From: a virus | Taxonomy: Duplodnaviria > Heunggongvirae > Uroviricota > Caudoviricetes | Length of the DNA: 14,641 nucleotides | Strand: one strand, 5' to 3' | Virus record (IMG/VR): IMGVR_UViG_2675903658_000001 | Part shown: piece after piece, positions 1 to 14,641 of the stretch | Layout of the letters: the number at the start of each line of letters is the position of its first letter | How positions within the stretch are numbered: position 1 is the first letter of the stretch | The notes under the pieces: generated by a model | What the model was told of the DNA's origin: nothing | The model's input: the letters and a program-made list of their open reading frames with translations, nothing else | Databases searched by the model: none | Program-made: the position numbers and the translations under genes

Positions 1-172
1 GATGCCGGGCCTCCTCCCGGGTCACGGAAAGCGTCACCCTGTATGTTTTCAGGTCAGCATTCAGCCCTGCCGCCATACGCTGTGAGTACCCGTCACCAAA
101 ACGCACTTCACGCACCGATGGCTGCGAGTTCACCTCCATATCCGGCTTCACTTTCCAGCGAAAGGTTTTCAT
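1..172 (-). CDS. M: Minor tail protein M, second copy; only the first ~57 codons are in the window, gene continues past the left edge
   Basis: Minus-strand ATG at 172-170 overlaps the stop of the H-fragment (ATGA). Nt 1-172 are identical by eye to 5628-5799, the 5' end of the complete M gene. Translation begins MKTFRWKVKPDMEV. Confidence 0.8.
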   Translation of the reverse strand, partial: MKTFRWKVKPDMEVNSQPSVREVRFGDGYSQRMAAGLNADLKTYRVTLSVTREEARH

Positions 173-690
173 CGACCGCTCCCTGATAACAGACCGCCAT
201 CACGCAACTGCAGCCGGAGTTCATCCTGTGCCCCCTTGCGGGCCATGTCATACACCGCCTTCATCAGCTGCGACCCCGCCTGTCCGTTGATACCGTCGTT
301 CTGAATCACCACGTGATTGTTCTGATTAAAATTAATGCCTTCGGCCCGCCGCATCTGCGCCGGACTTCCGGCAGCACCCACATACCCCCCTTCCGCATAG
401 CCCCGCATCAGGCGGTACAGGTTCCCGACACCAATCCGGCTGGTTGCCTCCTTCGTGAAGACAAACTCCCCGCGGTGGACAATCCCCGCTGGCTCATATT
501 TGCCACCGGTTCCCGTAAATCCCCCGGTCGCGAAATGGAAGTTCGCCGCCGCAGCCTGAATGGCTGTACCGCCTGACGCTGATGCGCCGCCACCGGTAGC
601 CCCGCCAATGGCGCTGCCGATACTCCCGACAATCCCCACCATTGCCTGCTTAAGCAGAATTTCTGTCATCATGGATTTTTGTCGTGACAT
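169..690 (-). pseudogene. Tape measure protein H, C-terminal fragment (173-aa ORF equal to the last ~170 residues of H); likely remnant
   Basis: Six-frame ORF 169..690; the protein aligns with the C-terminus of the full H at 5796..8375 at roughly 93% identity, with no indels (1-675 colinear with 5628-6302). The ATG at 690-688 lies inside the 95-bp repeat and has no obvious Shine-Dalgarno. Confidence 0.7.
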
Positions 691-770
691 AAGAATAATT
701 ATCTATAGTTGATCTTCGTAACGCTCCCGCAGCTCCGCAACTCTGCGGGATTTTTTTATTCTTTTTACCC
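676..770 (+). repeat. Copy A of a ~95-bp element (candidate sRNA body plus terminator), direct repeat of 3350-3450
   Basis: Aligned by eye to 3350-3450 at roughly 85% identity. Both copies start at TTTTTGTCGTGA and end at GGGATTTTTTTATTCTTTTTACCC, and both begin (on the minus strand) exactly at the GGG-TAA that ends the upstream tail gene. Confidence 0.8.
725..765 (+). terminator. Intrinsic-terminator-like hairpin plus T-tract on the plus strand (copy A)
   Basis: Stem cccgcag (726-732) pairs with ctgcggg (743-749), 10-nt loop, followed by TTTTTTTATTCTTTTT (751-766). Confidence 0.55.
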
Positions 771-3101
771 AATCCGGCTCCCCTGGACAGTCCACTGACT
801 GCCGGTCCCCAGATAACGGGCAGATTTTTCCACCTGTGCCGTGTTCGTGATGCGTTTTTCTGAGAACCAGAATTCAAACTGTACCGTCGGGTCATACACC
901 GCAAGACGCGGGACCGCCGTTATCTGAAAATACCCCGGCGTCAGCTCAATGGTGGCGGGTTTTGCAGGCGCGTTAATCCGGAAGGTGGTGGTCGCAGGTT
1001 CGCCCTGCTGGCCGTAGCTGTTAATGGCCCGCACCGTCAGGGTGTATTCCCCCAGCGGCAGACCACTGAAACGGTGCTCCGTGTCTGCGGTGATGGCGGT
1101 GCTCACCAGACGGCTGTCTTCTCCGCTTCCGCTGGTCAGACGCAGACTGAAGCGCACACCCTTCACCACCCGCGGCGTGTCCCATTTCGCCTGTGCCAGA
1201 TACTGACCGTCAGCTGCACTCACCTCCACCGTCAGGTGCTGCACTGCCGGTGGGATAACGCTGTTCAGGCTGCCTGACTGCGGCTCAAAGCTGGCCCCGT
1301 TATCCACAATGGCTTCTTTTTCCGGTACGTGCTGCACCGCCGTGATGGCGAACGTGCCGTCCGTGTTTTCCCGAATGGAGACACAGCGGAACAGGCGACG
1401 ACGCAGTGACGGCAGGGAGAGTCCCCACACACCGTATGTCTCCACACCATCCGGCAGGGTGCTGACCTGTATCCGGTCAGGCGCGGGGTGTGCGGTGATG
1501 GCCACGCTCGCCGGCTTACCGCTGCCGTTAATCAGATTAACAGTGGCCGTGCCGGTCTCCGGCAGTGTCACCTCCCGGTCCAGCGTCAGGGTACGGCTGG
1601 CGGCATCGATGGACAGGACACGTCCGCCGGTCATGGTCCCGGCATAGTCGTTATCACAGATTTCAATGATGTCACCGGGTGTGTGACGCAGCCCCTGTGA
1701 CCCGAGCGTGAAATCCACCGTCTGCGTTTCCAGCAGTTCGGTCTTTATCACCCACAGCCCGGCACGGTGGGCCTGACCGCGGCTGGTACAGCCGAACGCG
1801 TCCATCTTCAGCAGGTTGCGTCCGTAGCGCAGTATGGCTTCCGGGTCTTCCACCAGTTCCGTGGAGGTCTGCCAGCCGTTCTGCGGGTCGGTGTAATTCA
1901 CCTCCACTGCCGTGTGCCGGTCCTTCAGGGCACTGAAGCTGTAGCGGAAACCCACGCCGTTATCATCCACCACCACATCGCTGTTGGTGTACGGCCACAC
2001 CACATCCGACGGACGGTCCTGAACGAACGTCAGCGTCTGGCCGTTCCATACCGGCATACAGCGCATCGCAGAGCAGAAATCACTGAGAACGTCCCACGCC
2101 TTACGCTGTTGTGCCAGGTACGCATTAAAGGTCATCCGCGGCTCGGTCCCCCCGAAACCATCCGGGACCGTCTGGTCGCAGTACTGCCCGATGGCATACA
2201 GCGCCCACTTGTCCACATCCGCCGCCCCCAGACGTTTTCCCATGCCGTAGCGCGGGTGAGTCAGCATGTCCCACAGACACCAGGCCGGGTTGTTGCTGTA
2301 TGCCGGTTTCAGGCTGCCGTCCCAGATACCACTGTACGTGCGTTTTTCCGGGTCATAGTTTGACGGCACCTGGATGATGCGACCGCGGATATGGTAGTTC
2401 ACCGTCATCTGCTGGCCGCCGAACTGCTCCGCATCCACCTGCAGCCCCACAATGGCCGTGTTCGGGTAGCACTGTTTCACATCGATGATTTCGGTGTATG
2501 ACGACCACAGCGTCTTATTCTGCAGCTGGTCCGTGGTGCTGTCCGCCGTCTCCCTGACCATCCGGATGTTAAAGGGCCGGGGAGGCAGATTATCCAGAAT
2601 CACCGAGGCCAGGAACTGCGAGGTGGTCTTGCCGTTAATGGTGACATCCTTTTCCGTCACCCAGCGGCCATTACGCTGTAACTGAATCAGAATCCGGACA
2701 GAGGAAGGATTACGGTCGCCCTTTGACGTGGTCTGCACCAGTGACTGCACCCCGAAGGTAACCCGCAGGCGGTCAATGTTCGCGGACGTAATGGTGCGCG
2801 TCACCGGTTTTGCCTTCGTCACTTCCACGCCCAGTCCGGTTTCAGCTCCGGAGGACTCAAAGCCTTCCGGTGGTGTCTGCTCCTGCTCCCCGGCACGCCA
2901 GACCGCAGTCACACCGTGTATCACGGGATTACCGTCCGTGTCCGTCAGCGGGGTTTTGTTCACCAGAATACTCTGCAGTCCCTTCACCGGACCTTCTATC
3001 GGTCCCTCACCAATCGCATCAATCACACTCATCATCTGCGTGGATTTGAGATTATCCTTCGCCTCACGAGGCGTGTGTGCCTTACCGCCACCTTTTCCCA
3101 T
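765..3101 (-). CDS. J: Tail tip / host-specificity protein J, N-terminal ~765 residues only; C-terminal receptor-binding part missing
   Basis: 778-aa ORF starting [22 protein letters not shown], matching lambda J residue for residue over much of its length as I recall it. RBS AGGGGAAGG 4 nt upstream. Similarity ends after ...RYLGT, then ~12 unrelated residues and a stop at the repeat junction. Lambda J is about 1132 aa. Confidence 0.85.
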
Positions 3102-3204
3102 ACAGCCTTCCCCTGAATAAATTAACCGCCACTTGCCATTCCGTACAGAAGTCGGATATCCTTCGCCCGAAAAGCATGAAACACATTTCTGCCATGCTAA
3201 AGAG

Positions 3205-3240
3205 AAACCCCGGTATCAGCAGATACCGGGGTTTTCTTTC
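3205..3240. terminator. Bidirectional intrinsic-terminator-like hairpin in the I-J intergenic insert
   Basis: Perfect 10-bp stem ccccggtatc (3208-3217) / gataccgggg (3222-3231) with loop agca, flanked by AAA on the 5' side and TTTTCTTTC on the 3' side, so it is followed by a U-rich tract on both strands. Confidence 0.65.
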
Positions 3241-3306
3241 ATGCCCACCGATAATCCTGTTGGTTAAAACCGGTAATGGCATAAAAATTCTGAATATCTT
3301 CACATT

Positions 3307-3334
3307 TTCACAAACTGACTGTGGCGCGTATAAT
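3307..3334 (+). promoter_or_regulatory. Near-consensus sigma70 promoter, antisense to the tail operon
   Basis: -35 TTCACA (3307-3312), 16-bp spacer, perfect -10 TATAAT (3329-3334); predicted start near 3341. It lies in the AT-rich insert, not in coding sequence. Confidence 0.55.
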
Positions 3335-3340
3335 TTCTCT

Positions 3341-3440
3341 GCGTTAATTTTTTTGTCGTGATATAAGAATAATTCCTTACACTTAATCTTCGTAACTCTC
3401 CCGCAGTTCCTGTCCGCGATCACTGCGGGATTTTTTTATT
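3341..3440 (+). ncRNA. Candidate ~100-nt small RNA, antisense to the 3' end of gene I
   Basis: Runs from the predicted start to the intrinsic terminator: 9-bp stem tcccgcagt (3399-3407) / actgcggga (3422-3430) then TTTTTTT (3431-3437). No plausible ORF. The body is conserved in the second copy at 676-770. Confidence 0.45.
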
Positions 3441-3450
3441 CTTTTTACCC
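3350..3450 (+). repeat. Copy B of the ~95-bp element, direct repeat of 676-770
   Basis: See copy A. Here the element abuts the stop codon of I (TAA at 3447-3445 on the minus strand). Confidence 0.8.
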
Positions 3451-4125
3451 CTGCCGCCCGATAACCACGACCTTTCCGCCCCCGCCTTCATCACGGGTGC
3501 TGATGTCCTGGGATATACGGCGGGAGCCAACCAGCATTTCCCCGTAAGGCACCGGCATCGGGTTCCCCTGGGCAATCATGTTATCCAGCGAGGAAAAGTA
3601 CGTGTTCTGTCTGCCGTTATCCGTTGCGCGGTAATCCGGTGTTTTTGCCTTCGGGGCCAGCATCTGGGCCACACCGCCCAGTATCATGCTGGCCCCCAGT
3701 GAAAACAGCATCGTGGTGGCAGAAAAACCGCCGGCACTCAGGGCTGTACCCCATAACACCATCGAGGCACCGGCCGTGAAGAAAGAGCCCACGATGGCTG
3801 CCGCCCCCAGCACAATCTGCAGTCCGCCCTTTCCGGCTCCGGCCAGTCGCGGCACAATGTGGATGACCGTTCCCTCACCCAGCTGTTCGTGAAGACGGGC
3901 GTACACCGCCTCCGGTGCCGTGTCATCACCGGCAATACGTATCTGGTACCAGCCTTCGTTCATCTGACGGCGAAAGCCCGGCACCTGTAACGACAGGGCA
4001 CGGATGGCTTCCGCTGCCGTGTTCACATACAGGCTGAGGCGGCGGCCAAATCGTTGCAAATCCCCGTGAAGGCAGATGCGTGCCAGTGGCGGTGACGCCA
4101 GACAGAATGCGTTCGTCGTTGCCAT
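3445..4125 (-). CDS. I: Tail tip assembly protein I (ubiquitin-like N-terminal domain family)
   Basis: 226-aa ORF starting MATTNAFCLASPPLARICLHGDLQRFGRR, lambda I-like. The start lies ~100 nt inside the 3' end of K in another frame, as in lambda. Confidence 0.9.
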   Translation of the reverse strand: MATTNAFCLASPPLARICLHGDLQRFGRRLSLYVNTAAEAIRALSLQVPGFRRQMNEGWYQIRIAGDDTAPEAVYARLHEQLGEGTVIHIVPRLAGAGKGGLQIVLGAAAIVGSFFTAGASMVLWGTALSAGGFSATTMLFSLGASMILGGVAQMLAPKAKTPDYRATDNGRQNTYFSSLDNMIAQGNPMPVPYGEMLVGSRRISQDISTRDEGGGGKVVVIGRQG

Positions 4126-4766
4126 TTTTCGGAATACCTCTCCCGTTTACTCAGTTGTTCAGGAATATGGTGCAGCAGCTCGCCGTCACCACAGTAAATG
4201 GCGGCATGATTCGGCACCGATGAACCAAAACAGCACAGCAGCACATCGCCCGGCTGCGCCGCTGACAACGGCACCTGATACAGCCCTGTGGCCTCCAGAT
4301 TATCAAGATAGAGATTCTGGCCGTTACGCCACCAGTCATCCTCACGATGAAAGTCCGGCATCTCAGTCCCCGCCAGATGGTAAGCGTCCCGGAACAGCGT
4401 GTAACAGTCCGTCACCCCGTGCTCAAAGCGCCGCCCGGTGAGATGCGGCACACAGCGGAACTTATGAATCGCCCCCCGGCAGACCAGCCACCACGGCAAA
4501 TCACTCTGCACCTGCAGCCGCCGGTCGGCCTCACTCAGCCAGGGCAGACCACCGGGATGACTGTGGACCAGCGCCACAATCTCACCCTGCATCTCTGCCC
4601 GCAGCCAGTCTTCCGGTGCAATACGAAAATACGCCTCCGGCTCTGCAGAGATATTCACACAAGGGATATACCGCTCCCCCTCCGGCGTTCTCACCACTAA
4701 GCCGCACGACTCCGCAGGCACACACCGCCGGGCATGCGCCAGAATCGCTGATTCTGTCTGTGTCAT
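4023..4766 (-). CDS. K: Tail tip assembly protein K (JAB/MPN metalloprotease-like plus NlpC/P60 peptidase-like domains)
   Basis: 247-aa ORF with a JAMM motif HSHPGGLPWLSEAD and an NlpC/P60-type Cys/His region (GVTDCYTLF ... NHAAIY). It starts 5 nt after the L stop with no strong SD, so the true start could be an internal Met. Confidence 0.88.
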   Translation of the reverse strand: MTQTESAILAHARRCVPAESCGLVVRTPEGERYIPCVNISAEPEAYFRIAPEDWLRAEMQGEIVALVHSHPGGLPWLSEADRRLQVQSDLPWWLVCRGAIHKFRCVPHLTGRRFEHGVTDCYTLFRDAYHLAGTEMPDFHREDDWWRNGQNLYLDNLEATGLYQVPLSAAQPGDVLLCCFGSSVPNHAAIYCGDGELLHHIPEQLSKRERYSEKWQRRTHSVWRHRHWHASAFTGICNDLAAASACM

Positions 4767-4771
4767 TGGAT

Positions 4772-5470
4772 TTACTGCGAAAGTTTATTAATGGAAAGGA
4801 AACCGCCAAAATTAGCCACCATGCCGCGCATCTCACACCCGCGCATGCACTTGCTGCATCTGTCCTTACGGATATCCGTGGTGGGGTTGTCGAACTCATC
4901 CGCCACCGCAGGACCGTTATACCCGCATTCATCTCCCCGGTAATCCCACATACAGGTGTTCGCCAGCATGATGCGACCGGGAAACAGCGCCCCGTCCGTC
5001 TCGGTCGGTGTAGCCAGCACAAACGAGGCCGTCATGGCTGTCAGCTGCGACATCTGCTCCACCACCCAGCGGTCACTCAGCTCCTGCTCCGGGTCCGCCT
5101 CCGGATTGCCCGCAACGAAATTCACCGCATCCAGAAAACGGGCATACACCCGGCGGCGGACCACCGTGGCCCCCACCAGACTCTGCAGGTCTTCCGCCAT
5201 CCCGGTGACCAGACCGAACAGATTGGACACCGTCAGCGACGGTCTGGCACTGCTGCCCCGGCCGTTCATCTCAAAGCCGCTGCCGTCAATCGGGTATGCC
5301 TCATACTTACGCCCCTGCCAGGTGACCGGCTCCCCTTTTTCATTCAGCTCATTACAGAAAAAATACCGCTCACCGCCCTGTACCGTCAGGTCGATTTCCC
5401 AGAGTACCACCCGCGGTGACTGCTCTGACTTAACCGACTCGTTCAGACTTTCTTCGCGAATATCCTGCAT
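4772..5470 (-). CDS. L: Minor tail protein L
   Basis: 232-aa ORF, MQDIREESLNESVKSEQSPRVVLWEIDLT..., lambda L-like with the same length. Its start overlaps the M stop (TGATG). Confidence 0.93.
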   Translation of the reverse strand: MQDIREESLNESVKSEQSPRVVLWEIDLTVQGGERYFFCNELNEKGEPVTWQGRKYEAYPIDGSGFEMNGRGSSARPSLTVSNLFGLVTGMAEDLQSLVGATVVRRRVYARFLDAVNFVAGNPEADPEQELSDRWVVEQMSQLTAMTASFVLATPTETDGALFPGRIMLANTCMWDYRGDECGYNGPAVADEFDNPTTDIRKDRCSKCMRGCEMRGMVANFGGFLSINKLSQ

Positions 5471-5799
5471 CAGTTCACCACCTGCTTAAACTCCGCGCTG
5501 AACTCAACGCGCAACATCCCGACCCGCGCAGACCACCCGGCACAGGTCACCTTTATCTGCCGGTATGCATAGGGTGGCTTCCACAAAAATGCCTTCCAGC
5601 CCCCGTGCTCTGCCAGGAACGCTTCCAGATGCCGGGCCTCCTCCCGGGTCACGGAAAGCGTCACCCTGTATGTTTTCAGGTCAGCATTCAGCCCTGCCGC
5701 CATACGCTGTGAGTACCCGTCACCAAAACGCACTTCACGCACCGATGGCTGCGAGTTCACCTCCATATCCGGCTTCACTTTCCAGCGAAAGGTTTTCAT
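5470..5799 (-). CDS. M: Minor tail protein M
   Basis: 109-aa ORF, MKTFRWKVKPDMEV..., lambda M-like with the same length. ATGA overlap with the H stop. Confidence 0.93.
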   Translation of the reverse strand: MKTFRWKVKPDMEVNSQPSVREVRFGDGYSQRMAAGLNADLKTYRVTLSVTREEARHLEAFLAEHGGWKAFLWKPPYAYRQIKVTCAGWSARVGMLRVEFSAEFKQVVN

Positions 5800-8375
5800 C
5801 CACCGCTCCCTGATAACATACCGCCATCACGCAACTGCAGCCGGAGTTCATCCTGTGCCCCCTTGCGGGCCATCTCATACACCGCTTTCATCAGCTGCGG
5901 CCCTGCCCGCCCGTTGGGGCCGTCGTTCTGAATCACCACGTGATTGTTCTGATTAAAATTAATGCCTTCCGCCCGCCGCATCTGCGCCGGACTTCCGGCA
6001 CCGCCGACATAACCACCTTCCGCATAGCCCCGCATCAGGCGGTACAGATTGCCGACACCAATCCGGCTGGTCGCCTCCTTCGTGAAGACAAACTCCCCGC
6101 GATGAACAATCCCCGCAGGTTCATATTTACCCCCCGTCCCCGTAAATCCCCCGGTCGCGAAATGGAAGTTCGCCGCCGCAGCCTGAATGGCCGTCCCCGT
6201 GGAGGCAGACGCACCACCACCGAAAGCACCGCCAATGGCGCTGCCGATACTCCCGACTATCCCCACCATCGCCTGCTTCAGAAAAATCTCTGTCAGCATG
6301 GACAGCACAGAACGGGTGAAACCACGCCAGTTCTGTTCGCTGCCGGTCAGCATCGCTGCCATATTCTGTGCAATACCGTCAAAGGTCTGCGTGGCAGCAC
6401 TTTTTACCTGCGACATACTGTCCGTGGCACTCTCTTCCCACTCACTCCAGCCGGACCTGAGGCCTGCCATCCAGTTCCCGCGAAGCAGGTCTTCAGCCGC
6501 CCAGGTCTTTTTCTGCTCTGACATGACGTTATTCAGCGCCAGCGGATTATCGCCATACTGTTCCTTCAGGCGCTGTTCTGTGGCTTCCCGTTCTGCCTGC
6601 CGGTCAGTCAGCCCCCGGCTTTTCGCATCAATGGCGGCCCGTTTTGCCCGTTGCTGCTGTGCGAATTTATCCGCCTGCTGCGCCAGCGCGTTCAGGCGCT
6701 CCTGATACGTAACCTTGTCGCCAAGTGCAGCCAGCTGGCGTTTGTACTCCAGCGTCTCATCTTTATGCGCCAGCAGGGATTTCTCCTGTGCAGACAGCTG
6801 GCGACGTTGCGCCGCCTCCTCCAGTACCGCGAACTGACTCTCCGCCTTCCACAAATCCCGGCGCTGCTGGCTGATTTTCTCATTCGCTCCGGCATGCTTC
6901 TCCAGCGTCCGGAGTTCTGCCTGAAGCGTCAGCAGGGCAGCATGAGCACTGTCTTCCTGACGATCGCCCGCAGACACCTTCACGCCGGACTGTTTCGGCT
7001 TTTTCAGCGTCGCTTCATAGTCCTTTTTCGCCGCCGCCATCAGCGTGTTGTAATCCGCCTGCAGGATTTTCCCGTCTTTCAGGGCCTTATTCAGCTCTTC
7101 CTGCCGGTCAGTATATTTCTCCAGTGGCGTCAGCAGACGCTCATACGCCTTCTGCGCCTCTCCGGTATACTTCAGCTGTGACGCCTCACGCTCAGCCCGG
7201 TCCCTTGCCGCCAGTTCACCGGCTTTTTCCATATCCGACTGCAGCGTGGCCGCTGCCAGACCCAGACGGGCATTTTCCCGGTCATCCCATGCCCCCTGAA
7301 GGTTCGCACGAAAAGAGGAGGTCTTTCCCCGGCGCTGGCTCCGGCTCTGGTACCACTGCCATTTTTTATCCGCCTCATCAAATGCCTTCTGCGCACTGGC
7401 GAGCATATCCGCTGAGGATTCCGGACGACCGATATCCAGAATGGCATCCCACATCGATTTGAATGCCTTCCCTGTTTTATCCGCCCAGGTCTCCAGTGTT
7501 CCCATGTTTTCTTTCAGGCGACGGGTCTGCTCATCAAAGCCTTTCGTGGCGATATCGTTCGCCGCCTGTAAGGCTCCGGCCTCGTCTCCGGAACGCTGCA
7601 GTTGTGCAACATACGCAATCTGCTCTGCCGTCACGTTACGAAACTGGCGCGCCATCGCCATCAGTCCCGACGTCGGGTCAGTGGTCAGCTTCCCGAAGGC
7701 TTCAGCGACTTTATCCACCTCCACACCGGATGCAGACGCAAAACGCGCGACACTCTGGTTGATGGCATCAAACTGTTCACCACCACGCACACCGGCATTC
7801 ACCAGGGCTGCCAGTGACTCTCTCGCCTGGTTAAACGTCAGCCCTGCTGCCTGCCCGGCTCTTGAGAGAGTCAGCATACGATCGGCAGTCAGTCCGGACT
7901 GATTACCGGAAAGAACCAGGGTTTTATTAAACGCTGAAAGCGTGGAATCTCCCTGGTACCAGGCGTACACCAGCGCACCTGTCGCCACCGCCAGCGAGGT
8001 GACCCCGACCATCGGCAGGGTGATCGCACCGGCAAGCCCCCTGAACATGGGGATCATCCCGCCGAAGGAGTCCTTCACCTGACCGCCCTGTTGCAGCAGG
8101 ATCAGCCAGGGATTCTGACCACCGGCAAGCTGCGTGGCGATATCCGTAAACTGTGCGGGCAGGGTTCGCATGGCCGCTTTATACTGCCCGACGGAAATCC
8201 CTGCTTTTTGTGCAGCCAGCGCCTGGCGGCTCAGGCCCTGTTCAACAGCACTGGCGGTTTTTCTGGCGTCGGTATCCAGACCTGAAAAATGACGCCTTAC
8301 CCGGCTCATCTGCTCATCGAAACGGACAGCATCCAGACTAAGGTCAATAACAAGATCACCAACCGGCTGGGACAT
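5796..8375 (-). CDS. H: Tail tape measure protein H
   Basis: 859-aa ORF, MSQPVGDLVIDLSLDAVRFDEQMSRVRRHFSG..., lambda H-like (about 853 aa in lambda). RBS GGGAGG 8 nt upstream. Gly-rich hydrophobic C-terminal segment. Confidence 0.95.
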   Translation of the reverse strand: MSQPVGDLVIDLSLDAVRFDEQMSRVRRHFSGLDTDARKTASAVEQGLSRQALAAQKAGISVGQYKAAMRTLPAQFTDIATQLAGGQNPWLILLQQGGQVKDSFGGMIPMFRGLAGAITLPMVGVTSLAVATGALVYAWYQGDSTLSAFNKTLVLSGNQSGLTADRMLTLSRAGQAAGLTFNQARESLAALVNAGVRGGEQFDAINQSVARFASASGVEVDKVAEAFGKLTTDPTSGLMAMARQFRNVTAEQIAYVAQLQRSGDEAGALQAANDIATKGFDEQTRRLKENMGTLETWADKTGKAFKSMWDAILDIGRPESSADMLASAQKAFDEADKKWQWYQSRSQRRGKTSSFRANLQGAWDDRENARLGLAAATLQSDMEKAGELAARDRAEREASQLKYTGEAQKAYERLLTPLEKYTDRQEELNKALKDGKILQADYNTLMAAAKKDYEATLKKPKQSGVKVSAGDRQEDSAHAALLTLQAELRTLEKHAGANEKISQQRRDLWKAESQFAVLEEAAQRRQLSAQEKSLLAHKDETLEYKRQLAALGDKVTYQERLNALAQQADKFAQQQRAKRAAIDAKSRGLTDRQAEREATEQRLKEQYGDNPLALNNVMSEQKKTWAAEDLLRGNWMAGLRSGWSEWEESATDSMSQVKSAATQTFDGIAQNMAAMLTGSEQNWRGFTRSVLSMLTEIFLKQAMVGIVGSIGSAIGGAFGGGASASTGTAIQAAAANFHFATGGFTGTGGKYEPAGIVHRGEFVFTKEATSRIGVGNLYRLMRGYAEGGYVGGAGSPAQMRRAEGINFNQNNHVVIQNDGPNGRAGPQLMKAVYEMARKGAQDELRLQLRDGGMLSGSGG

Positions 8376-9227
8376 ATCTCACACCTCCCGGAATCCCCGC
8401 TGAAGCCATCATTAATGCGGCATCATCCACCATGACATCCGCCACATCCGCAGACGATAAAATATCGCGCCCTCCGTCCCCACCGAACCGGACGCCTCCG
8501 GCAAGTCCTGCCGCTTTCTGCATCAGCATTTTGTCCTCATCCGGCCTCTCCACCTGCTCTTCCTCATGCCGGGGGACAAGCAGACTGAAATCAGAGGGAT
8601 GCATATCCGGATCGCAAAAAAACAGGCTGAGTACAGCGTACGTCAGCCCGGAAAAATGCATATCCAGCTGGGTATCCTGAAAATAATGCGTGCGGTAAAA
8701 ACGGTGCCAGTCGGCATATTCGGTGGATGTCATCCCGGCAAGCATGGCGCGCCAGTCGGGTCTCCCCATCTCACGCGCCAGTCTGAGGGCAAAGTTCAGC
8801 TCGCCGTCGAAGACTTTCCCGCAGAAAAATCATCATCAGTCAGCGTGTTATTTTTCGCCACTTCAGTAATATCAGTATCCGGACGAACAGCTTCGATCAT
8901 CCCGGACAGGCACAACACCACGTCTTCCGCCCGGGCAATGGCATCGGCAGGCCAGGTGGTGAGCACTTCCTGCTCTATCTTCATCACGGCCTCATTCATT
9001 GACGGTGACTGCGTTTTCTGTGGATGGTTATGCCACAGGGACATCGCCACCAGAAACGCGCCGGTTCTGACGAGATCTTCCACACTTACCTGCAGGTTGC
9101 CGCTGGATTCTGCCTGTTCTGCACGCCGTTTCAGGAGGGCAAGATGCTCGATACGCTGCAGCGCAGACAATTCGGAAAGCGTGACAGACACACCGTTATA
9201 TTCAAATTGTTCTGTTTTCAGAAACAT
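8356..9227 (-). CDS. T: Tail assembly chaperone G-T fusion made by programmed -1 ribosomal frameshift (G frame to about 8814, then the T frame to the stop at 8356)
   Basis: The T-frame ORF (8356..8769, MGRPDWRAMLAGMTSTEYADWHRFY...) has no independent start context. It is open upstream into G, and the slippery heptamer sits at the junction. The post-shift reading VFDGELNFALRLAREMGRPDW matches the lambda gpGT junction. Confidence 0.85.
8796..9227 (-). CDS. G: Tail assembly chaperone G
   Basis: 143-aa ORF, MFLKTEQFEYNGVSVTLSELSALQRIEHLALLKRRAEQAES..., lambda G-like. RBS GGAGG 7 nt upstream. Confidence 0.93.
   Translation of the reverse strand: MFLKTEQFEYNGVSVTLSELSALQRIEHLALLKRRAEQAESSGNLQVSVEDLVRTGAFLVAMSLWHNHPQKTQSPSMNEAVMKIEQEVLTTWPADAIARAEDVVLCLSGMIEAVRPDTDITEVAKNNTLTDDDFSAGKSSTAS
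8814..8820 (-). other. -1 frameshift slippery heptamer G GGA AAG
   Basis: Plus strand ctttccc at 8814-8820 is the reverse complement of GGGAAAG, in the G frame as GCG GGA AAG, 7 codons before the G stop. This is the lambda G-T slippery sequence. Confidence 0.85.
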
Positions 9228-9240
9228 GTATTACCTCCGT

Positions 9241-9993
9241 TTACCCTGCAGCGCCCGCTTCAGTAACGGTGACTTCAGCCACTGCGGCGAACTGACCATT
9301 TCCGCTCACCACAGGGATCTGCACCTTACCTGTCGCCACGCCGTTTACCGTAATTGTCATATCTTTCACACTAATGGTGGCTTTCGACGGATCGGCGGAA
9401 ACCGCTCTGAACGTCTTGTCGGTTGCACTTTCCGGCTCAAAAGAAACCGTCAGGGTGGTTGTTTTCCCTTTTGCCACCGTACCGGATGTCGGCGTCACCT
9501 TAATCGCACTGACCGGCGTAATTTTGCTGCGTTCTTCCGCTACAGAAGGTTTACCCACGTTAGTGACTTTCACCGTGCGGGTGATCACTTCTTTCGCCGT
9601 CACGGCCTTACCGATACTGCTGACCCAGCCACGAAACACATCCACCGTGCCATTCGGAAAACGGATTTTATAGGCCCGGACATCGCCGCTTTCAAACCAG
9701 CCTATAAGCCCTTTCTGACCTTCCTCTCCCGGTTTCCAGGCCAGCGTAAAACTGGTATCACCTGCAGATTTCTGTCCCTGCCCGGTCGCGGTCCAGTCCG
9801 CGTCTTCATCATCCAGGTAGTTATCATCGTAGGGTTCTGCCGTCATCTCGCCCGGCGTCAGATCCTTCACCTTAGCCAGTCGCTGCCAGTCATCGTCTGA
9901 CAACGGGTTTGCATAAGCATCACCCTTGCCGTTGTAAACCCACAGAGTGGTACCGGCACCTTTTACCGGCTCAAGGGGATTTGGTGTTGCCAT
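9241..9993 (-). CDS. V: Major tail tube protein V with a C-terminal Ig-like domain
   Basis: 250-aa ORF, lambda V-like. RBS GAGGA. The C-terminal ~90 aa are Thr/Val-rich beta-strand sequence typical of the Ig-like decoration domain. Confidence 0.93.
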
Positions 9994-10000
9994 ATCGTCC

Positions 10001-10396
10001 TCACATCTCGTATGTAATGGAATAAGTCAGATCTGCAGAACTCCATAACGCCATATCGTCATCACGACGATACTCATAGCCCTGCGTAACCATCGTGGTA
10101 ATCAGTCCTGCCAGTGCCGGGATCGCGGTCATCGCCGGGTAAATCCGGCTTTCCATCCACTGATCAAGCTCTGAATCCGGTACCTGTGCCGGTAAAAACA
10201 CCTCAATATGCAGCGTGGCCCGCCAGGTATCTGCATCCAGCTCTTCACCGGTATACTCTGCATCCGTCAGATAAACCGCGATCGCAGGAAAATCCTCTTC
10301 GTCAAAAACAACGGGGCGACCATCAAACAGCGTCGCCCCGTGTTCATGCTGCTCGAGTGCATCCAGCACTGCGGCACGAATGTCAGTGTGTTTCAT
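10001..10396 (-). CDS. U: Tail terminator protein U
   Basis: 131-aa [36 protein letters not shown]..., lambda U-like with the same length. ATGA overlap with the Z stop. Confidence 0.94.
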
Positions 10397-10926
10397 CGTT
10401 TTATTGCAATCCTCAGTTGTTGTTTCAGCGCGGATGCCAGTTCTTTGGGCAGGCGTTCACGCCGGATACGGTCAACATTCTCATCAAACGCCTGTTTCAG
10501 TGGGGCCGCCATCGGGATTTTCACCACATCAATGGGGTAACGGTTTTTCCCGGCCACACGCTGCATGACATGCCAGCGACCGTTTTTTAATCGCTGAATG
10601 AATGCCCGCTGATACCGATGCTGACCGGCTTTAAGTATGCTGTTCGGGCGACGGCCCAGCATCCTGATCCCCAGCTTAATCACTGGGAGATCACCGCGGT
10701 TAACGATAATTTTTGCGTTCGGATTTCTGACCGTGGCCCGTTTCAGTCTGGACCGTTCCTTAACCAGTTTCCGGCGTACCTTTGTCTCCCGGGCAACCTG
10801 TGATGAAGACTGATTAATCGCCGTTGTGGCCACGCGGTTAATCGTCATTGCTGAAGCCGCCGGAATGGCGTTTTTACGAACCCGGCTCAGATTGTCAATC
10901 GCCTGATCAAGCCCTTTTATCGCCAT
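10393..10926 (-). CDS. Z: Tail completion protein Z
   Basis: 177-aa ORF, MAIKGLDQAIDNLSRVRKNAIPAASAMTINRVA..., lambda Z-like; the C-terminus ...[22 protein letters not shown] is conserved. Confidence 0.93.
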   Translation of the reverse strand: MAIKGLDQAIDNLSRVRKNAIPAASAMTINRVATTAINQSSSQVARETKVRRKLVKERSRLKRATVRNPNAKIIVNRGDLPVIKLGIRMLGRRPNSILKAGQHRYQRAFIQRLKNGRWHVMQRVAGKNRYPIDVVKIPMAAPLKQAFDENVDRIRRERLPKELASALKQQLRIAIKR

Positions 10927-10941
10927 AATTTCACCCTGCGT

Positions 10942-11295
10942 TTATCGTCGCCGGTTAACTGCGGGTGGTTGCCCACGGTTGAGCCAGAGATAACAGCTGC
11001 CCCCGTCATCCGGAGAAACACGATCCACCCAGAACATCTCGCCGTTAATGGTCAGCGTGTCACCACGCCGCACGGCACGCACCGTATCCGTCCGCACAAA
11101 TAATGACGGGCTGCTTCCTTCAATACGGACCCCGCCACCGGCAAAACCCAGCGACTCCGGATCGTCAAAAACCCCCTGAACTTCGCTTCCACGTTGTGCT
11201 CCGGAGGTGAACTGCGCACAGAGCCCCATCACTTCAACGATCGTGCTGTCCACCCCGGCGAGGGCAGCATCAAAGGCATTCTGAAAATCACGCAT
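10942..11295 (-). CDS. FII: Head-tail joining protein FII
   Basis: 117-aa ORF, MRDFQNAFDAALAGVD...VDRVSPDDGGSCYLWLNRGQPPAVNRRR, lambda FII-like with the same length. Confidence 0.94.
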   Translation of the reverse strand: MRDFQNAFDAALAGVDSTIVEVMGLCAQFTSGAQRGSEVQGVFDDPESLGFAGGGVRIEGSSPSLFVRTDTVRAVRRGDTLTINGEMFWVDRVSPDDGGSCYLWLNRGQPPAVNRRR

Positions 11296-11362
11296 GTTCA
11301 GCCGTTCCGTGCTGTATCATGGCTGTTGCCAGTGGTGATGGCACCATAACACGCATGCCCCG

Positions 11363-11671
11363 TTACGTCAGTTCAACGGGACGGCCTGTCTCCGGGCAAT
11401 ACCCCATTACTTGCAGGCACTTCCGTCCCCGGACGGCTTTAACATCATCCGGAGCATCCGTGTTGTTCAACTGCTCACCATCGTCTGTGTGATTTTGATC
11501 AGCCCCGCTCTCATCAGAGTGCATAATGCCCTCCGGGGAAACAGCAAGCTCCTCTTCCCACTCAGACACACGTTGAGCAATATCCGCAGCACTCCCCGAC
11601 ATATCCGCCTCGCGCCCCAGCAGGCCAGCCAGTTGACGAAGACGATTCAGATTTTCTTCTTTTGTTGCCAT
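11363..11671 (-). CDS. FI: DNA-packaging / head assembly protein FI
   Basis: Start reassigned to the second Met of track ORF 11363..11704 (MATKEENLNRLRQ...), which has a strong SD AGGAGG 5 nt upstream. The upstream ATG lies inside the terminator hairpin loop. Acidic middle region as in lambda FI. Confidence 0.85.
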   Translation of the reverse strand: MATKEENLNRLRQLAGLLGREADMSGSAADIAQRVSEWEEELAVSPEGIMHSDESGADQNHTDDGEQLNNTDAPDDVKAVRGRKCLQVMGYCPETGRPVELT

Positions 11672-11683
11672 CTCAGCCTCCTG

Positions 11684-11716
11684 TGAAAAAAGACACGGGG
11701 GCATTTCGCCCCCGCT
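11684..11716 (-). terminator. Intrinsic-terminator-like hairpin between E and FI (candidate attenuator)
   Basis: On the minus-strand RNA: 7-bp GC stem (11696-11702 / 11708-11714) with a 5-nt loop, then UGUCUUUUUUCA (11695-11684), then the FI SD. Confidence 0.5.
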
Positions 11717-11722
11717 CCCGGA

Positions 11723-12751
11723 TTATTTCACCTGTACCACCACAAACTCATCCGGATCCGGCAGCACCATCAGCGGTGCGGACTGCGTCATGGTGAATTC
11801 ACGGGCCGGATCGCCCACAGTCAGCCAGTGTTTCGGATAACGGGAAGAGGCCACCACACCTTCGGACAACGCCTGCGCATCCTGAATGGCACCATAGCAA
11901 CGAATGCCCTCTGCTGCCGTATTCCCCAGGACCAGTGTGCCCTCCGGCAGATAACGTTTTTCGGTACCGTCCTCTGCCACATAAGACGTTTTCGCCACCA
12001 CAATGGCCAGATCGCCGTAATACCCCTTGAAGGACACCACTGCGCCCAGGTCTTTCACTGCCGTTTCGAGTTGTGAATTTGAGCCGCGACGGGTATCCAG
12101 TTTTTCGCGGAACAGCTTAAAGCCATTCAGCAGACGCCAGACCGTACCGTCCATAATGGCGATATTCACAAGGCCGCTGGCCTGATCGCAGTAGAGGTCA
12201 ATATCATGCGTCGGATCAAACGTATCACGGTCCTGCTCAGACCATTTTTTACCGTCAGCCTGCTCAATGTTATTTCCTTCAGAGCGCCCGAAATCCACCT
12301 CGACAGTATCAAACTGATCCCCTTCCATGGTGTATTTGCCATACAGCACGGCATTCACCGCCTGCATTTCTTCCACCTGGACAATGGCGTGCTCTTCCTG
12401 TTTGAGGTTATCGGTAATGATACGCAGACGACGGTAGGCTGGGTCGTTCAGCTGAGCCGGATCTTCACCAGGAAGGCGCTCAACCGCCTGCTGGTAATTA
12501 AATTCGTGTTTGGGCTTGACGTAGCCCGGACGTAACACGCGGGTTTCACCACCGCGATGGCGAAGCACTTTTCCTTCAACGATCGGGGAGACATAGGCCG
12601 CCACCGGCGTTTTTCCGGTAATTTTGTCCAGCATCACCTCTTCGGTGTGGAAATTCACCGTGCGGCGGAAAAACAGCTCCAGAAACAGCGCACGGAATTT
12701 AACTTTTTGTTCGGTATAACCGAGTAACTGGCGGGTCGTAAACAATCCCAT
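11723..12751 (-). CDS. E: Major capsid protein E
   Basis: 342-aa ORF, MGLFTTRQLLGYTEQKVKFRALFLELFFRR...SAPLMVLPDPDEFVVVQVK, lambda E-like (341 aa in lambda). RBS AGGA 8 nt upstream. Confidence 0.96.
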   Translation of the reverse strand: MGLFTTRQLLGYTEQKVKFRALFLELFFRRTVNFHTEEVMLDKITGKTPVAAYVSPIVEGKVLRHRGGETRVLRPGYVKPKHEFNYQQAVERLPGEDPAQLNDPAYRRLRIITDNLKQEEHAIVQVEEMQAVNAVLYGKYTMEGDQFDTVEVDFGRSEGNNIEQADGKKWSEQDRDTFDPTHDIDLYCDQASGLVNIAIMDGTVWRLLNGFKLFREKLDTRRGSNSQLETAVKDLGAVVSFKGYYGDLAIVVAKTSYVAEDGTEKRYLPEGTLVLGNTAAEGIRCYGAIQDAQALSEGVVASSRYPKHWLTVGDPAREFTMTQSAPLMVLPDPDEFVVVQVK

Positions 12752-12779
12752 AAATCAGTTCCTTTCATTCAGAAATCAG

Positions 12780-12801
12780 TCAGGCCACCATGGTGGCCTG
12801 A
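12780..12801 (-). other. Perfect 22-bp palindrome in the D-E intergenic region (RNA hairpin or protein site)
   Basis: tcaggccaccatggtggcctga equals its own reverse complement; it sits about 28 nt upstream of the E start and 8 nt after the D stop. Confidence 0.5.
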
Positions 12802-12808
12802 TAACGTG

Positions 12809-13156
12809 TTACGGCAGCGCCGCGTGACTCAGGGCTGTACCGGCAAAGGCATTTGCCTTTTTGTGTTCATCCACACTGTCAGGCCAGCGGATTGCCTCCG
12901 TCGCAAAGGTCCCCGACTTGTAATAGGTCAGCACCGTCTCTGTGCCTTCAAGCGGCAGTACCAGTATGCCAACCGCACTACCGGCTTTCTGTCCATCCCA
13001 GACAACCAGTTTCCCGCTGGCTTCATCCAGCATCAGGGGCGTCAGTGCCGGTGTTGCCTGAGAAATCCCGCTGCTGCCTGTGGCGGTATGAGCCGGATCA
13101 TTACCGGCAAAAATACGTACTTCTGCACGTTGTTCAGTGATGGTTTTCGTTACCAT
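12809..13156 (-). CDS. D: Head decoration protein D
   Basis: 115-aa ORF containing NDPAHTATGSSG...TPLMLDEASGKLVVWDG...YKSGTF, lambda D-like. RBS GAGG 8 nt upstream. Confidence 0.93.
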   Translation of the reverse strand: MVTKTITEQRAEVRIFAGNDPAHTATGSSGISQATPALTPLMLDEASGKLVVWDGQKAGSAVGILVLPLEGTETVLTYYKSGTFATEAIRWPDSVDEHKKANAFAGTALSHAALP

Positions 13157-13192
13157 ATTGTTAAAACCTCGTATTGATGTTCAGCACTGACT

Positions 13193-13795
13193 TCATGGCA
13201 TGGCCATGAGCATTTTCACGTCCGCATCACCGTCTTCTGACGTCTGTGACACGCCCCCCTGGACCGCTGCCGGTGAATGGTTCGCCATGAAATGTTCAAA
13301 CAGGGCGGTTGTGGATGCAGAGACCGGTTCTGCTTTATCCGGCGATGAGGACAGAATGTCGCGGGCAGCCTCCACCGTCATTCCGGGAAACGCCGCCAGT
13401 TTTTCAGCCTGCGCCTCAGCCCCTTTTGCCTCATCCAGAGCCATGATCTGATCACGGAGTGAGGGTCCGGCATCCGCCAGTGGTGCAGCCGCCAGGATCG
13501 GGCGGGCTTTTTCCACCGTCATCTCCGGCATCGCCGCCAGCGTTGCCGCCAGTTGTTCACGACCTTTAGCCTCTTCACACGCCATAATGCGATCGGCTTC
13601 ACTCTGCGTGGATGCCACCGGCTGCTGTGGTGCTGCCGCGGTCAGAATCGCCCGGGCCTGTTCAACGCTCATGCCCTGTTGTCCTGCCAGCATCGTGGCA
13701 AGGTGTTCACGTCCTTTCGCTTCCTGACACGTCAGGATCCCCATCACTCGCTGGTTCTCCTGCGCGGCAGCTTCCGTTGCAGTTAATTGCGGCAT
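13193..13795 (-). CDS. Nu3: Nu3-like scaffolding protein, made by in-frame internal initiation within C
   Basis: Internal ATG at 13795-13793 (MPQLTATEAAAQ...) is preceded by a strong SD AGGAGG 4-5 nt upstream, embedded in the C frame. It corresponds in position to lambda Nu3, which is nested in the 3' third of C. It contains three tandem ~48-aa repeats. Confidence 0.65.
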   Translation of the reverse strand: MPQLTATEAAAQENQRVMGILTCQEAKGREHLATMLAGQQGMSVEQARAILTAAAPQQPVASTQSEADRIMACEEAKGREQLAATLAAMPEMTVEKARPILAAAPLADAGPSLRDQIMALDEAKGAEAQAEKLAAFPGMTVEAARDILSSSPDKAEPVSASTTALFEHFMANHSPAAVQGGVSQTSEDGDADVKMLMAMP

Positions 13796-14641
13796 AGTGC
13801 CTCCTGTATCATGTGTGTTCAGCGCCGCAGCCATCACGCTGATGGCATCCGACGCATTGATTAATTCATCCGCCAGCCCGGCCTCAATGCCGGACTGACC
13901 TTCAAAAACGGCGGCCTCTGTTCCCGTGACTGCATCAACAGACAGACCGGTATACATCGCCACTTTTTCGGCAAACATCCGGCGCGCCGCATCAATCCGC
14001 TGCTGCATGTCCTGGCGAACCTCTTCCGGCAACGCTTCAAACTGATTGCCATCCACCTTGTGCGCCCCTGAGTAAATCAGCGTGATATCCACACCGGCCT
14101 GCGCCAGATGACCGGCATAGCTGACATGGCTCATCATCACGCCAATGGAGCCGATACGGGATGTCTGGGTAACCAGCCGTCGGGAGCAGGCCGACGCCAG
14201 CAGCATGGCTGCAGAACAGGCCGTGTCATTGCACAGTGCCCAGACCGGCTTCTGCTGACGGAGTCGGTAAATCATGTCAGCACAGTCAAACGCACCGGCG
14301 GCCTGCCCGCCCGGACTGTCAATGTCCAGCAGTACACCCCGCACCTGGCTATCCGCCATTGCCTGCTGAAGACAGGCGACAATGCCGTCATAGCCTGTCA
14401 TTCCGGAAAATGGCCGCATACCCCCCAGCCGGTGCACCAGCGTGCCTGTCACCGGCAGTACAGCAATACCGTTCACCACCCGGTAAACACGGGCCGGTCG
14501 TTTACCTCCGGCCATGTACTCGTCCGTTTCAGCCAGCATTCCGGGAGCATCAAGCTGTACCTGCTGTTGTGGTACCGAAAGACTTGCTGCCCCCATCTCG
14601 CGCCCGAGCGCGCAAAAGAAAACCCGCGCATAGGCGGGCTC
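13193..14641 (-). CDS. C: Capsid assembly protease C (S49/ClpP-like), 5' end beyond the right edge of the window
   Basis: The frame is open to the window edge; the upstream codons read EPAYARVFFCAL, matching lambda C near residue 25. The body has a lambda C-like core (VNGIAVLPVTG...VWALCNDTACSAAMLLASA...). Confidence 0.92.
   Translation of the reverse strand, partial: EPAYARVFFCALGREMGAASLSVPQQQVQLDAPGMLAETDEYMAGGKRPARVYRVVNGIAVLPVTGTLVHRLGGMRPFSGMTGYDGIVACLQQAMADSQVRGVLLDIDSPGGQAAGAFDCADMIYRLRQQKPVWALCNDTACSAAMLLASACSRRLVTQTSRIGSIGVMMSHVSYAGHLAQAGVDITLIYSGAHKVDGNQFEALPEEVRQDMQQRIDAARRMFAEKVAMYTGLSVDAVTGTEAAVFEGQSGIEAGLADELINASDAISVMAAALNTHDTGGTMPQLTATEAAAQENQRVMGILTCQEAKGREHLATMLAGQQGMSVEQARAILTAAAPQQPVASTQSEADRIMACEEAKGREQLAATLAAMPEMTVEKARPILAAAPLADAGPSLRDQIMALDEAKGAEAQAEKLAAFPGMTVEAARDILSSSPDKAEPVSASTTALFEHFMANHSPAAVQGGVSQTSEDGDADVKMLMAMP
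13313..13762 (-). repeat. Three tandem, diverged ~48-codon repeats within the C/Nu3 C-terminal region
   Basis: The protein repeats share the motif EAKGRE.LA..LA..P.MTVE.AR.IL.AAP (ILTCQEAKGREHLATMLAGQQGMSVEQARAILTAAAP / IMACEEAKGREQLAATLAAMPEMTVEKARPILAAAP / IMALDEAKGAEAQAEKLAAFPGMTVEAARDILSSSP). Lambda has one copy as I recall. Confidence 0.7.

Follow-up and report, generated by a model that had tools for sequence, protein, structure and literature searches.

The tail region described here raises a double question: what is the short element that occurs in it twice, and why does one of its copies sit exactly where gene J appears to be cut off? The window, by which we mean the whole stretch of 14,641 nucleotides that was analysed (IMG/VR record IMGVR_UViG_2675903658_000001), has on its minus strand the layout of a lambda-like head and tail operon, running from capsid genes through V, G, T, H, M, L, K and I to a shortened J, here called J'. 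A sequence-only reading of this window had proposed an sRNA/terminator element that has its second copy exactly where J is truncated, marks the boundaries of tail modules and, as two direct repeats bracketing J', offers a substrate for recombination.

The repeats themselves were found where they had been placed, copy A at 676-770 (95 nt) and copy B at 3350-3450 (101 nt), as direct repeats with about 83-85% identity. The repeat search matched 676-736 to 3350-3410 at 85% and 743-770 to 3423-3450 at 100%, and alignment with MAFFT and BLAST gave 83% over 101 columns; the differences are 11 mismatches and a sole indel of 6 nt that falls in the hairpin loop. The stem CCCGCAG/CTGCGGG, followed by an A and seven T residues, is kept in both copies, and the terminator scan flagged both on the plus strand, copy A with its hairpin at 726-749 and T-tract at 751-757, copy B with its hairpin at 3400-3429 and T-tract at 3431-3437 (the latter also by folding). 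Read on the minus strand, both copies begin at the GGG-TAA that closes a tail ORF, that of I at 3445 and that of J' at 765, again as proposed. At both copies the T-tract lies 3' of the hairpin on the plus strand alone, and the scan called no minus-strand terminator at either. The element is ruled out as an intrinsic terminator of I or J', since hairpin and T-tract terminate a plus-strand sRNA. The earlier label therefore stands for an sRNA gene with its own promoter and terminator, but not for a terminator of the minus-strand tail genes.

The promoter lies at 3307-3334 on the plus strand (TTCACA, a 16-nt spacer and TATAAT; 11/12 matches) and is the only strong one in 500-3600. Copy B is a complete small plus-strand transcription unit converging on gene I. 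Its sRNA extends from 3341 to 3437, with the stem at 3400-3406/3423-3429 and the 3' end in the U7 run at 3431-3437; the 5' end falls near 3341 by the promoter and at about 3355 by mapping of the annotated 5' end of the E2348/69 homologue introduced below. Gene I (3445-4026, minus strand; Pfam Lambda_tail_I and RefSeq annotation of homologous loci) has its stop codon 8 nt past the U-run, so that the two genes are convergent. Meanwhile, the promoter scan returned nothing comparable upstream of copy A, in agreement with the sequence-only reading. Homology between the copies begins at the T-run, downstream of the -10 element, and copy A has nothing in common with copy B further upstream; it therefore lacks the promoter and would be silent even if real. 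What remains of it is a promoterless 95-nt fragment on the plus strand (676-770), running from the 5' T-run to 13 nt beyond the U7 run.

A very stable palindromic hairpin was also observed at 3193-3243, between the promoter and the start codon of J. Folding gave -28.7 and -32.2 kcal/mol (z -6.7 and -5.2), and its core, CCCCGGTATC-AGCA-GATACCGGGG, is flanked by T-rich tails on both strands. The predicted fold suggests that it is probably a bidirectional terminator or insulator of the insert between I and J.

Alignment and position together identify the repeated element as the already described PasB sRNA gene of lambdoid prophages, the two copies being alleles that have diverged. First found in EPEC O127:H6 E2348/69, PasB acts there by base pairing and depends on Hfq (Pearl Mizrahi et al. 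2021, PMC8550237). The supplementary table of that study places it in prophage PP6, at NC_011601.1 1466343..1466261 on the minus strand, with a length of 83 nt, and the probe used for its detection was AATCCCGCAGTGATCGCGGAGCT (PMC8550237). The E2348/69 RNA was validated by northern blot, its stability depends on Hfq, and its RIL-seq partners belong to both the core and the accessory genome (PMC8550237). PasB is embedded in a phage structural operon and has the widest distribution among the Pas sRNAs (Zhu, Shabalina and Storz 2026, bioRxiv 10.64898/2026.05.13.724894).

In the RefSeq annotation of E2348/69, PasB (1466261-1466343) lies between I, which ends at 1466255, and gpJ, which starts at 1466496. 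Copy B occupies the same I-J spacer, with I ending at 3445, J starting at 3101 and the sRNA on the plus strand. Copy A as placed in the window lies between J' and H' (a partial second H, described below), not between I and J, and an identical native copy in the same scaffold does lie between I and J. Over the 83 nt of the E2348/69 RNA, copy B is 73% and copy A 69% identical, and over a 190-nt region identity is 80%. The alignment of E2348/69 with copy B spans the promoter, a block made of GCGTTA and the T-run, the GTTRATCTTC block and the terminator, and the northern probe matches 3410-3432 on the minus strand at 20/23 positions (3 mismatches), for which the chance expectation is zero. The TTCACA/TATAAT promoter is conserved in E2348/69, AR_0086, VT1-Sakai, BP-4795 and about 40 IMG/VR variants. 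Hence the window alleles share with E2348/69 PasB the I-J spacer, the convergence with I, the promoter, an identical terminator stem with its U7 tail, and the conserved blocks GCGTTA, T-run, AAAAAYAAYTCC and GTTRATCTTC; they differ from it in their 5' third, which reads GTCGTGAYATAAGAATAATT in the window alleles and GCCCGAGTAACAAAAACAAC in E2348/69. Expression, stabilisation by Hfq and pairing with mRNAs are known for the E2348/69 allele and, by analogy, may be expected of alleles A and B. Searched across the entire window at gathering thresholds, Rfam yielded no family, and relaxing to E<=10 for 600-3520 brought up matches of chance level only. An identity with the anti-sRNA AgvB is ruled out, because AgvB lies downstream of pR', at the moron site, and not between I and J.

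The sequence on the other side of copy A has a different origin from the rest of the window. Positions 1-675 hold, on the minus strand, a second allele ('b') of the end of H and the start of M: the last 173 codons of H (H', ORF 169-690) and the start of M (1-172). This segment is 93-94% identical to the window's own 5628-6302, with homology stopping exactly at 675, and it is 100% identical to H and M of L001 and AR_0086. These matches indicate that it comes from another, AR_0086-like prophage of the same genome and is not a recent duplication. Copy A likewise shows 100% identity, along precisely 95 nt, with the native PasB in the I-J spacer of AR_0086, of L003, L005 and many other genomes, and of L006, the draft scaffold from which the window is taken.

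J' (765-3101, minus strand) comprises 778 codons: codons 1-777 of J, followed by a glycine codon and a stop supplied by copy A. Its Pfam J domains end inside Ig_J_second. The complete genome L004 matches window 771-3460 at 100% and continues into an intact J of 1230 aa, and complete genomes with an identical H protein have a normal I-PasB-J arrangement with a J of 1230 aa. Look-ups of the exact J' (778 aa) and H' (173 aa) proteins found nothing, in the case of J' because an ambiguous base makes codon 777 ambiguous, and in the case of H' because the gene caller had used another start (167 aa).

When the window is compared with L001, the nearest relative, 771-4250 is 100% identical and mismatches cluster in K/L (4250-5250) and at the 3' end of H (5750-6500), a pattern consistent with the typical patchwork mosaicism of lambdoid tail modules. 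The closely related prophage of L001 (NZ_CM142674.1) has, at L001 1-766 and downstream of the tail fibre genes, cdtA and cdtB of the type I cytolethal distending toxin.

The ambiguous base points to the probable explanation of the whole arrangement. A look-up of the exact H protein of the window returned the scaffold KQ087876.1, and the window is the reverse complement of positions 3735-18375 of KQ087876.1 (GCA_001030435.1; L006), where it is bounded by runs of 100 N and 365 N. Within this 22.6-kb locus there is only one single N, at L006 17605, which is window 771, directly after copy A; it appears as 'a' in the window. Window 1-770 is therefore a separate contig of 770 bp, which ends with copy A, and 771 is the joint between copy A and J'. 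The scaffold runs from contig c3 (window 772-14641; allele set 'a', down to H, M, L, K, I, PasB-B and J'), through the one N, to contig c4 (1-770; the PasB-A stub with H' and M of set 'b'), then through 365 N to contig c5, which holds L of set 'b', K, I, a native PasB-A and a full-length J. This native PasB-A lies at L006 20670-20764, about 3 kb further along the scaffold from the stub. The H/M part of c4 (100%) and c5 (99.7%) are colinear with one intact AR_0086 tail module, with an implied gap of 253 nt, and the 95-nt stub alone does not fit the order of that module. Beyond window 14641, across the 100-N gap, the first 877 bp of c3 recur in contig c2, where they are about 96.7% identical. 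This second allelic redundancy is a signature of interleaved paralogous contigs, and the scaffold, by its allele content, interleaves contigs from at least two related prophages. The redundant 877 bp belong to the portal/protease region (L006 1605-3634 versus 3735-4611). A literature search for GCA_001030435.1 found nothing.

The element is the known PasB, and we regard it as very probable that the window consists of two contigs joined at 771 and that the combination of copy A with a truncated J is a scaffolding artefact. The contig at 772-14641 would come from one prophage, carrying allele set 'a' and PasB-B, and would simply stop inside J; the contig at 1-770 would come from a second, AR_0086-like prophage, carrying set 'b' and PasB-A, and the scaffolder would have set it, along with the next contig, in tandem behind the first. 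The stub of 95 nt would then duplicate the native PasB-A gene. The truncation of J is apparent because a contig end was abutted to the next contig at this joint, and with the intact 1230-aa J of L004 the proposal that J is cut exactly at the element loses its support. What argues for the artefact is the single N at the joint, the 100% match of both parts of window 1-770 to AR_0086, with the H/M part and c5 colinear with one intact tail module, the 877-bp redundancy, the absence of the junctions elsewhere and the intact J in L004. From the same evidence we infer that the adjacency of J' and copy A does not exist in the cell.

Neither junction of copy A was covered in any of 5,426 complete E. 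coli genomes, where the best coverage of a 251-nt spanning query was 38%, and neither junction string occurred in the GTDB representative genomes or in the JGI metagenomes. The two differ in quality: the right junction carries the N, and the left one, at 675/676, is contiguous but unique to the GCA_001030435.1 assembly; the nearest complete genomes have an intact J. The left junction reads ...CATGGA|TTTTTGTCG... and lies inside c4. It joins points equivalent to AR_0086 positions 6952 and 4001, which share a strand, are separated by 2,952 bp and come together here in circularly permuted order, and it falls no more than about 10 nt from the PasB 5' end, in a zone in which natural insertions occur (L087, L036). 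At neither junction was any microhomology, or any sequence shared with the native flanks, detected. A simple repeat-collapse chimera at a shared k-mer is ruled out, given that neither junction has shared sequence.

The length of the stub may also bear on its origin, as 95 nt equals K-1 for K=96. This is a common setting of de Bruijn assemblers, and a length of K-1 would make the right end of the stub the boundary of a graph node, which is suggestive. As a general rule for the scaffold this was not borne out, since the pattern is not seen at other contig ends, and the match may be a coincidence.

The most serious challenge to this account comes from the left junction. Copy A could mark a genuine breakpoint in the second, AR_0086-like prophage, either a 2,952-bp tandem duplication (PasB-I-K-L-M-H') or a deletion between prophages. 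Gene I would then truly lie to the right of copy A, only the adjacency of J' would be artefactual, and an extra, promoterless PasB-A would abut a truncated tape-measure gene in the cell. The junction was assembled without ambiguity inside a contig, so some reads must have backed it; the linkage of the H' end to the PasB 5' end, two same-strand points separated by 2,952 bp, has the topology of a tandem duplication and could be a real one; and a breakpoint about 10 nt from the 5' end of PasB, in the short upstream zone broken by insertions in L087 and L036, is unlikely for a random chimera. Against these points stand the lack of microhomology at the joint, its absence from the 5,426 complete genomes and the other collections, and the demonstrable unreliability of this part of the scaffold. 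In addition, a circularisation chimera from a mate-pair (jumping) library of about 3 kb gives the same topology, so that three origins fit 675/676: a tandem duplication, a deletion between directly oriented prophages, and such a library chimera. We consider a genuine breakpoint possible, though doubtful.

Accepting the deposited order in full is far harder. J would have been cut after codon 777, a 95-nt patch templated by PasB-A would have been inserted, and a second partial module (H', M, L, K, I, PasB, J) would have followed, all by template switching. Apart from one N the deposited sequence does read so, and that N might in principle reflect a poor base call within a genuine junction. Template switching is known to leave short templated insertions at the joints of duplications. 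However, the ambiguous base falls exactly at the joint, the scaffold holds a second allelic redundancy, no microhomology occurs on either side, and the patch has the length K-1. Moreover, the two modules show patchy differences of 2-7%, and in complete genomes each has its match in a different intact prophage, so they are not a duplication. We hold this reading to be very improbable. Just as improbable, in our estimate, is the proposal that the promoter and hairpin zone of PasB acts as a hotspot where co-resident lambdoid prophages undergo replication template switching or recombine illegitimately, with the fragment as a real templated patch or duplication breakpoint; if it were true, an sRNA gene would be the physical mediator by which tail modules are shuffled.

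Returning to PasB itself, the family is far more common than its annotation suggests. A B-type query had BLAST matches in 1,418 of the 5,426 complete E. coli genomes, at up to 8 places per genome; among the matches listed, none carried an RNA feature and nearly all lacked any RefSeq feature. The same query also matches many Stx1a, Stx2c and Stx2a phages. PasB-type genes are hence widespread yet unannotated, and Rfam has no model for them. Scanning IMG/VR for the 17-nt terminator motif yielded about 40 distinct variants and 102 motif sites with enough flanking sequence, 90 of which lie between the start of J and the end of I. The other 12 include three sites of a deletion lineage (L016, L077, L086), one tandem second gene (L060), one PasB separated from J by a 1.3-kb insertion (L036) and one odd chimera (L097), the remainder being unrelated chance matches. 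With 90 of 102 sites at I-J, the element is without independent distribution, and the varied flanking contexts looked for as a check did not emerge. The refutation earlier proposed for the element, that it is simply a co-duplicated 3' end of I, fails, because the element shares with I only the last codon and the stop.

Several of these sites are of interest in their own right. In L016, L077 and L086, three independent contigs of a defective lineage, a deletion extends from codon 121 of L to the last 12 or so codons of I, and PasB and J are kept. An apparent ectopic PasB fragment inside gene L of L097 was traced to a chimera involving this same deletion lineage. In L055 (17-486) and L060 (539-1008), two different PasB-like genes stand in tandem, 453 bp apart and each with its own promoter, in an I-J spacer enlarged to about 920 nt; natural tandem pairs of sRNA genes therefore exist at this locus. 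Natural insertions between PasB and J were seen in L087 (about 1120-1960, roughly 0.5 kb) and in L036 (4570-6180, roughly 1.3 kb), and the break in L087 lies right at the 5' end of PasB and has removed the TTCACA promoter.

The alignment of the IMG/VR variants (L011-L130) revealed several 5' modules on one conserved 3' half, for example GTCGTGAYATAAGAATAATT, GCCCGAGTAACAAAAACAAC, CGGGCCAATAAAAACAAAAC and GATGCCTGAAAAATAAC. The 5' modules, the loops and the variants of the end of I reassort among PasB variants (e.g., L100), and PasB alleles reassort against the flanking alleles of I, J, K, L and H. The 5' diversity of PasB, as seen in these alignments, exceeds both the 'few nucleotide differences' reported and what BLAST surveys of close variants capture. 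Meanwhile, the terminator stem is invariant across 26 aligned variants together with VT1-Sakai, BP-4795 and Stx2a_WGPS8, the most divergent of them, an invariance that is partly forced by the search pattern and gives no covariation evidence either way. The compensatory stem changes that had been suggested as a check are accordingly missing, both between copies A and B and across the family.

These data also bear on the module-boundary idea, of which one part survives: alleles do reassort, and insertions do break the spacer just upstream of PasB. The rest does not, as the element lacks independent distribution and brackets J' in this scaffold only. No terminal inverted repeats or target-site duplications were found at the junctions in the window, and a mobile, MITE-like cassette is not supported, given this absence together with the largely constant I-J context. 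Hence a semi-autonomous sRNA/terminator cassette that marks tail-module boundaries and brackets J' with direct copies as a recombination substrate, to which the reassorting alleles and the tandem genes of L055 and L060 lend some colour, is scarcely credible, given that 90 of 102 sites lie between J and I, four more belong to the deletion lineage or a tandem copy and most others are chance matches, that terminal repeats and target duplications are lacking, and that the bracketing occurs in this scaffold alone.

With the window read as a scaffolding of two prophages that each carry a PasB allele, we propose the following working of the gene. PasB is a self-contained unit, comprising a sigma-70 promoter, a transcript of about 85-97 nt and a Rho-independent terminator ending in U7, inserted moron-style into the I-J spacer and transcribed toward I, counter to the late operon. 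As shown for the E2348/69 allele, transcription by sigma-70 RNA polymerase in the lysogen would begin at TTCACA/TATAAT and end in the U7 terminator, shortly ahead of the I stop codon. The hairpin and U-tail of the window alleles would serve as an Hfq-binding module, by extension from E2348/69, and pairing probably involves UUAAUCUUC, which is conserved and single-stranded, along with the variable 5' module. Late transcription antiterminated by Q would pass through PasB antisense to the gene, and the palindrome at 3193-3243 probably insulates the unit.

For the biology of these prophages the anomaly of the window matters little, as the sRNA is a published one and the arrangement most likely arose from scaffolding two similar prophages. 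A practical point follows from it: a single N shown as 'a' resulted in an apparently in-frame gene truncation, and scans of draft assemblies should carry information on N and other ambiguity into the window. In this respect the scaffold resembles the collapsed or interleaved repeat contigs of short-read drafts of E. coli with multiple prophages, in which allelic contigs of two similar prophages stand in tandem, with gaps at stretches of allelic identity and a lone N marking a forced joint. It differs from a simple repeat collapse in that its small contig c4 has an internal, chimeric-looking junction at 675/676.

Among known sRNAs, the closest parallels to PasB are AgvB and AsxR (Tree et al. 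2014, PMC4104026) and PasA, PasC and PasD, which are likewise short, Hfq-associated RNAs of lambdoid prophages encoded as units with their own promoter and terminator. All of these are located downstream of pR' and close to the lysis and stx genes, whereas PasB lies in the tail operon and has no sequence similarity to them. The PasB family nevertheless shares with these moron sRNAs the same overall design, in which variable 5' ends are carried on a conserved 3' half.
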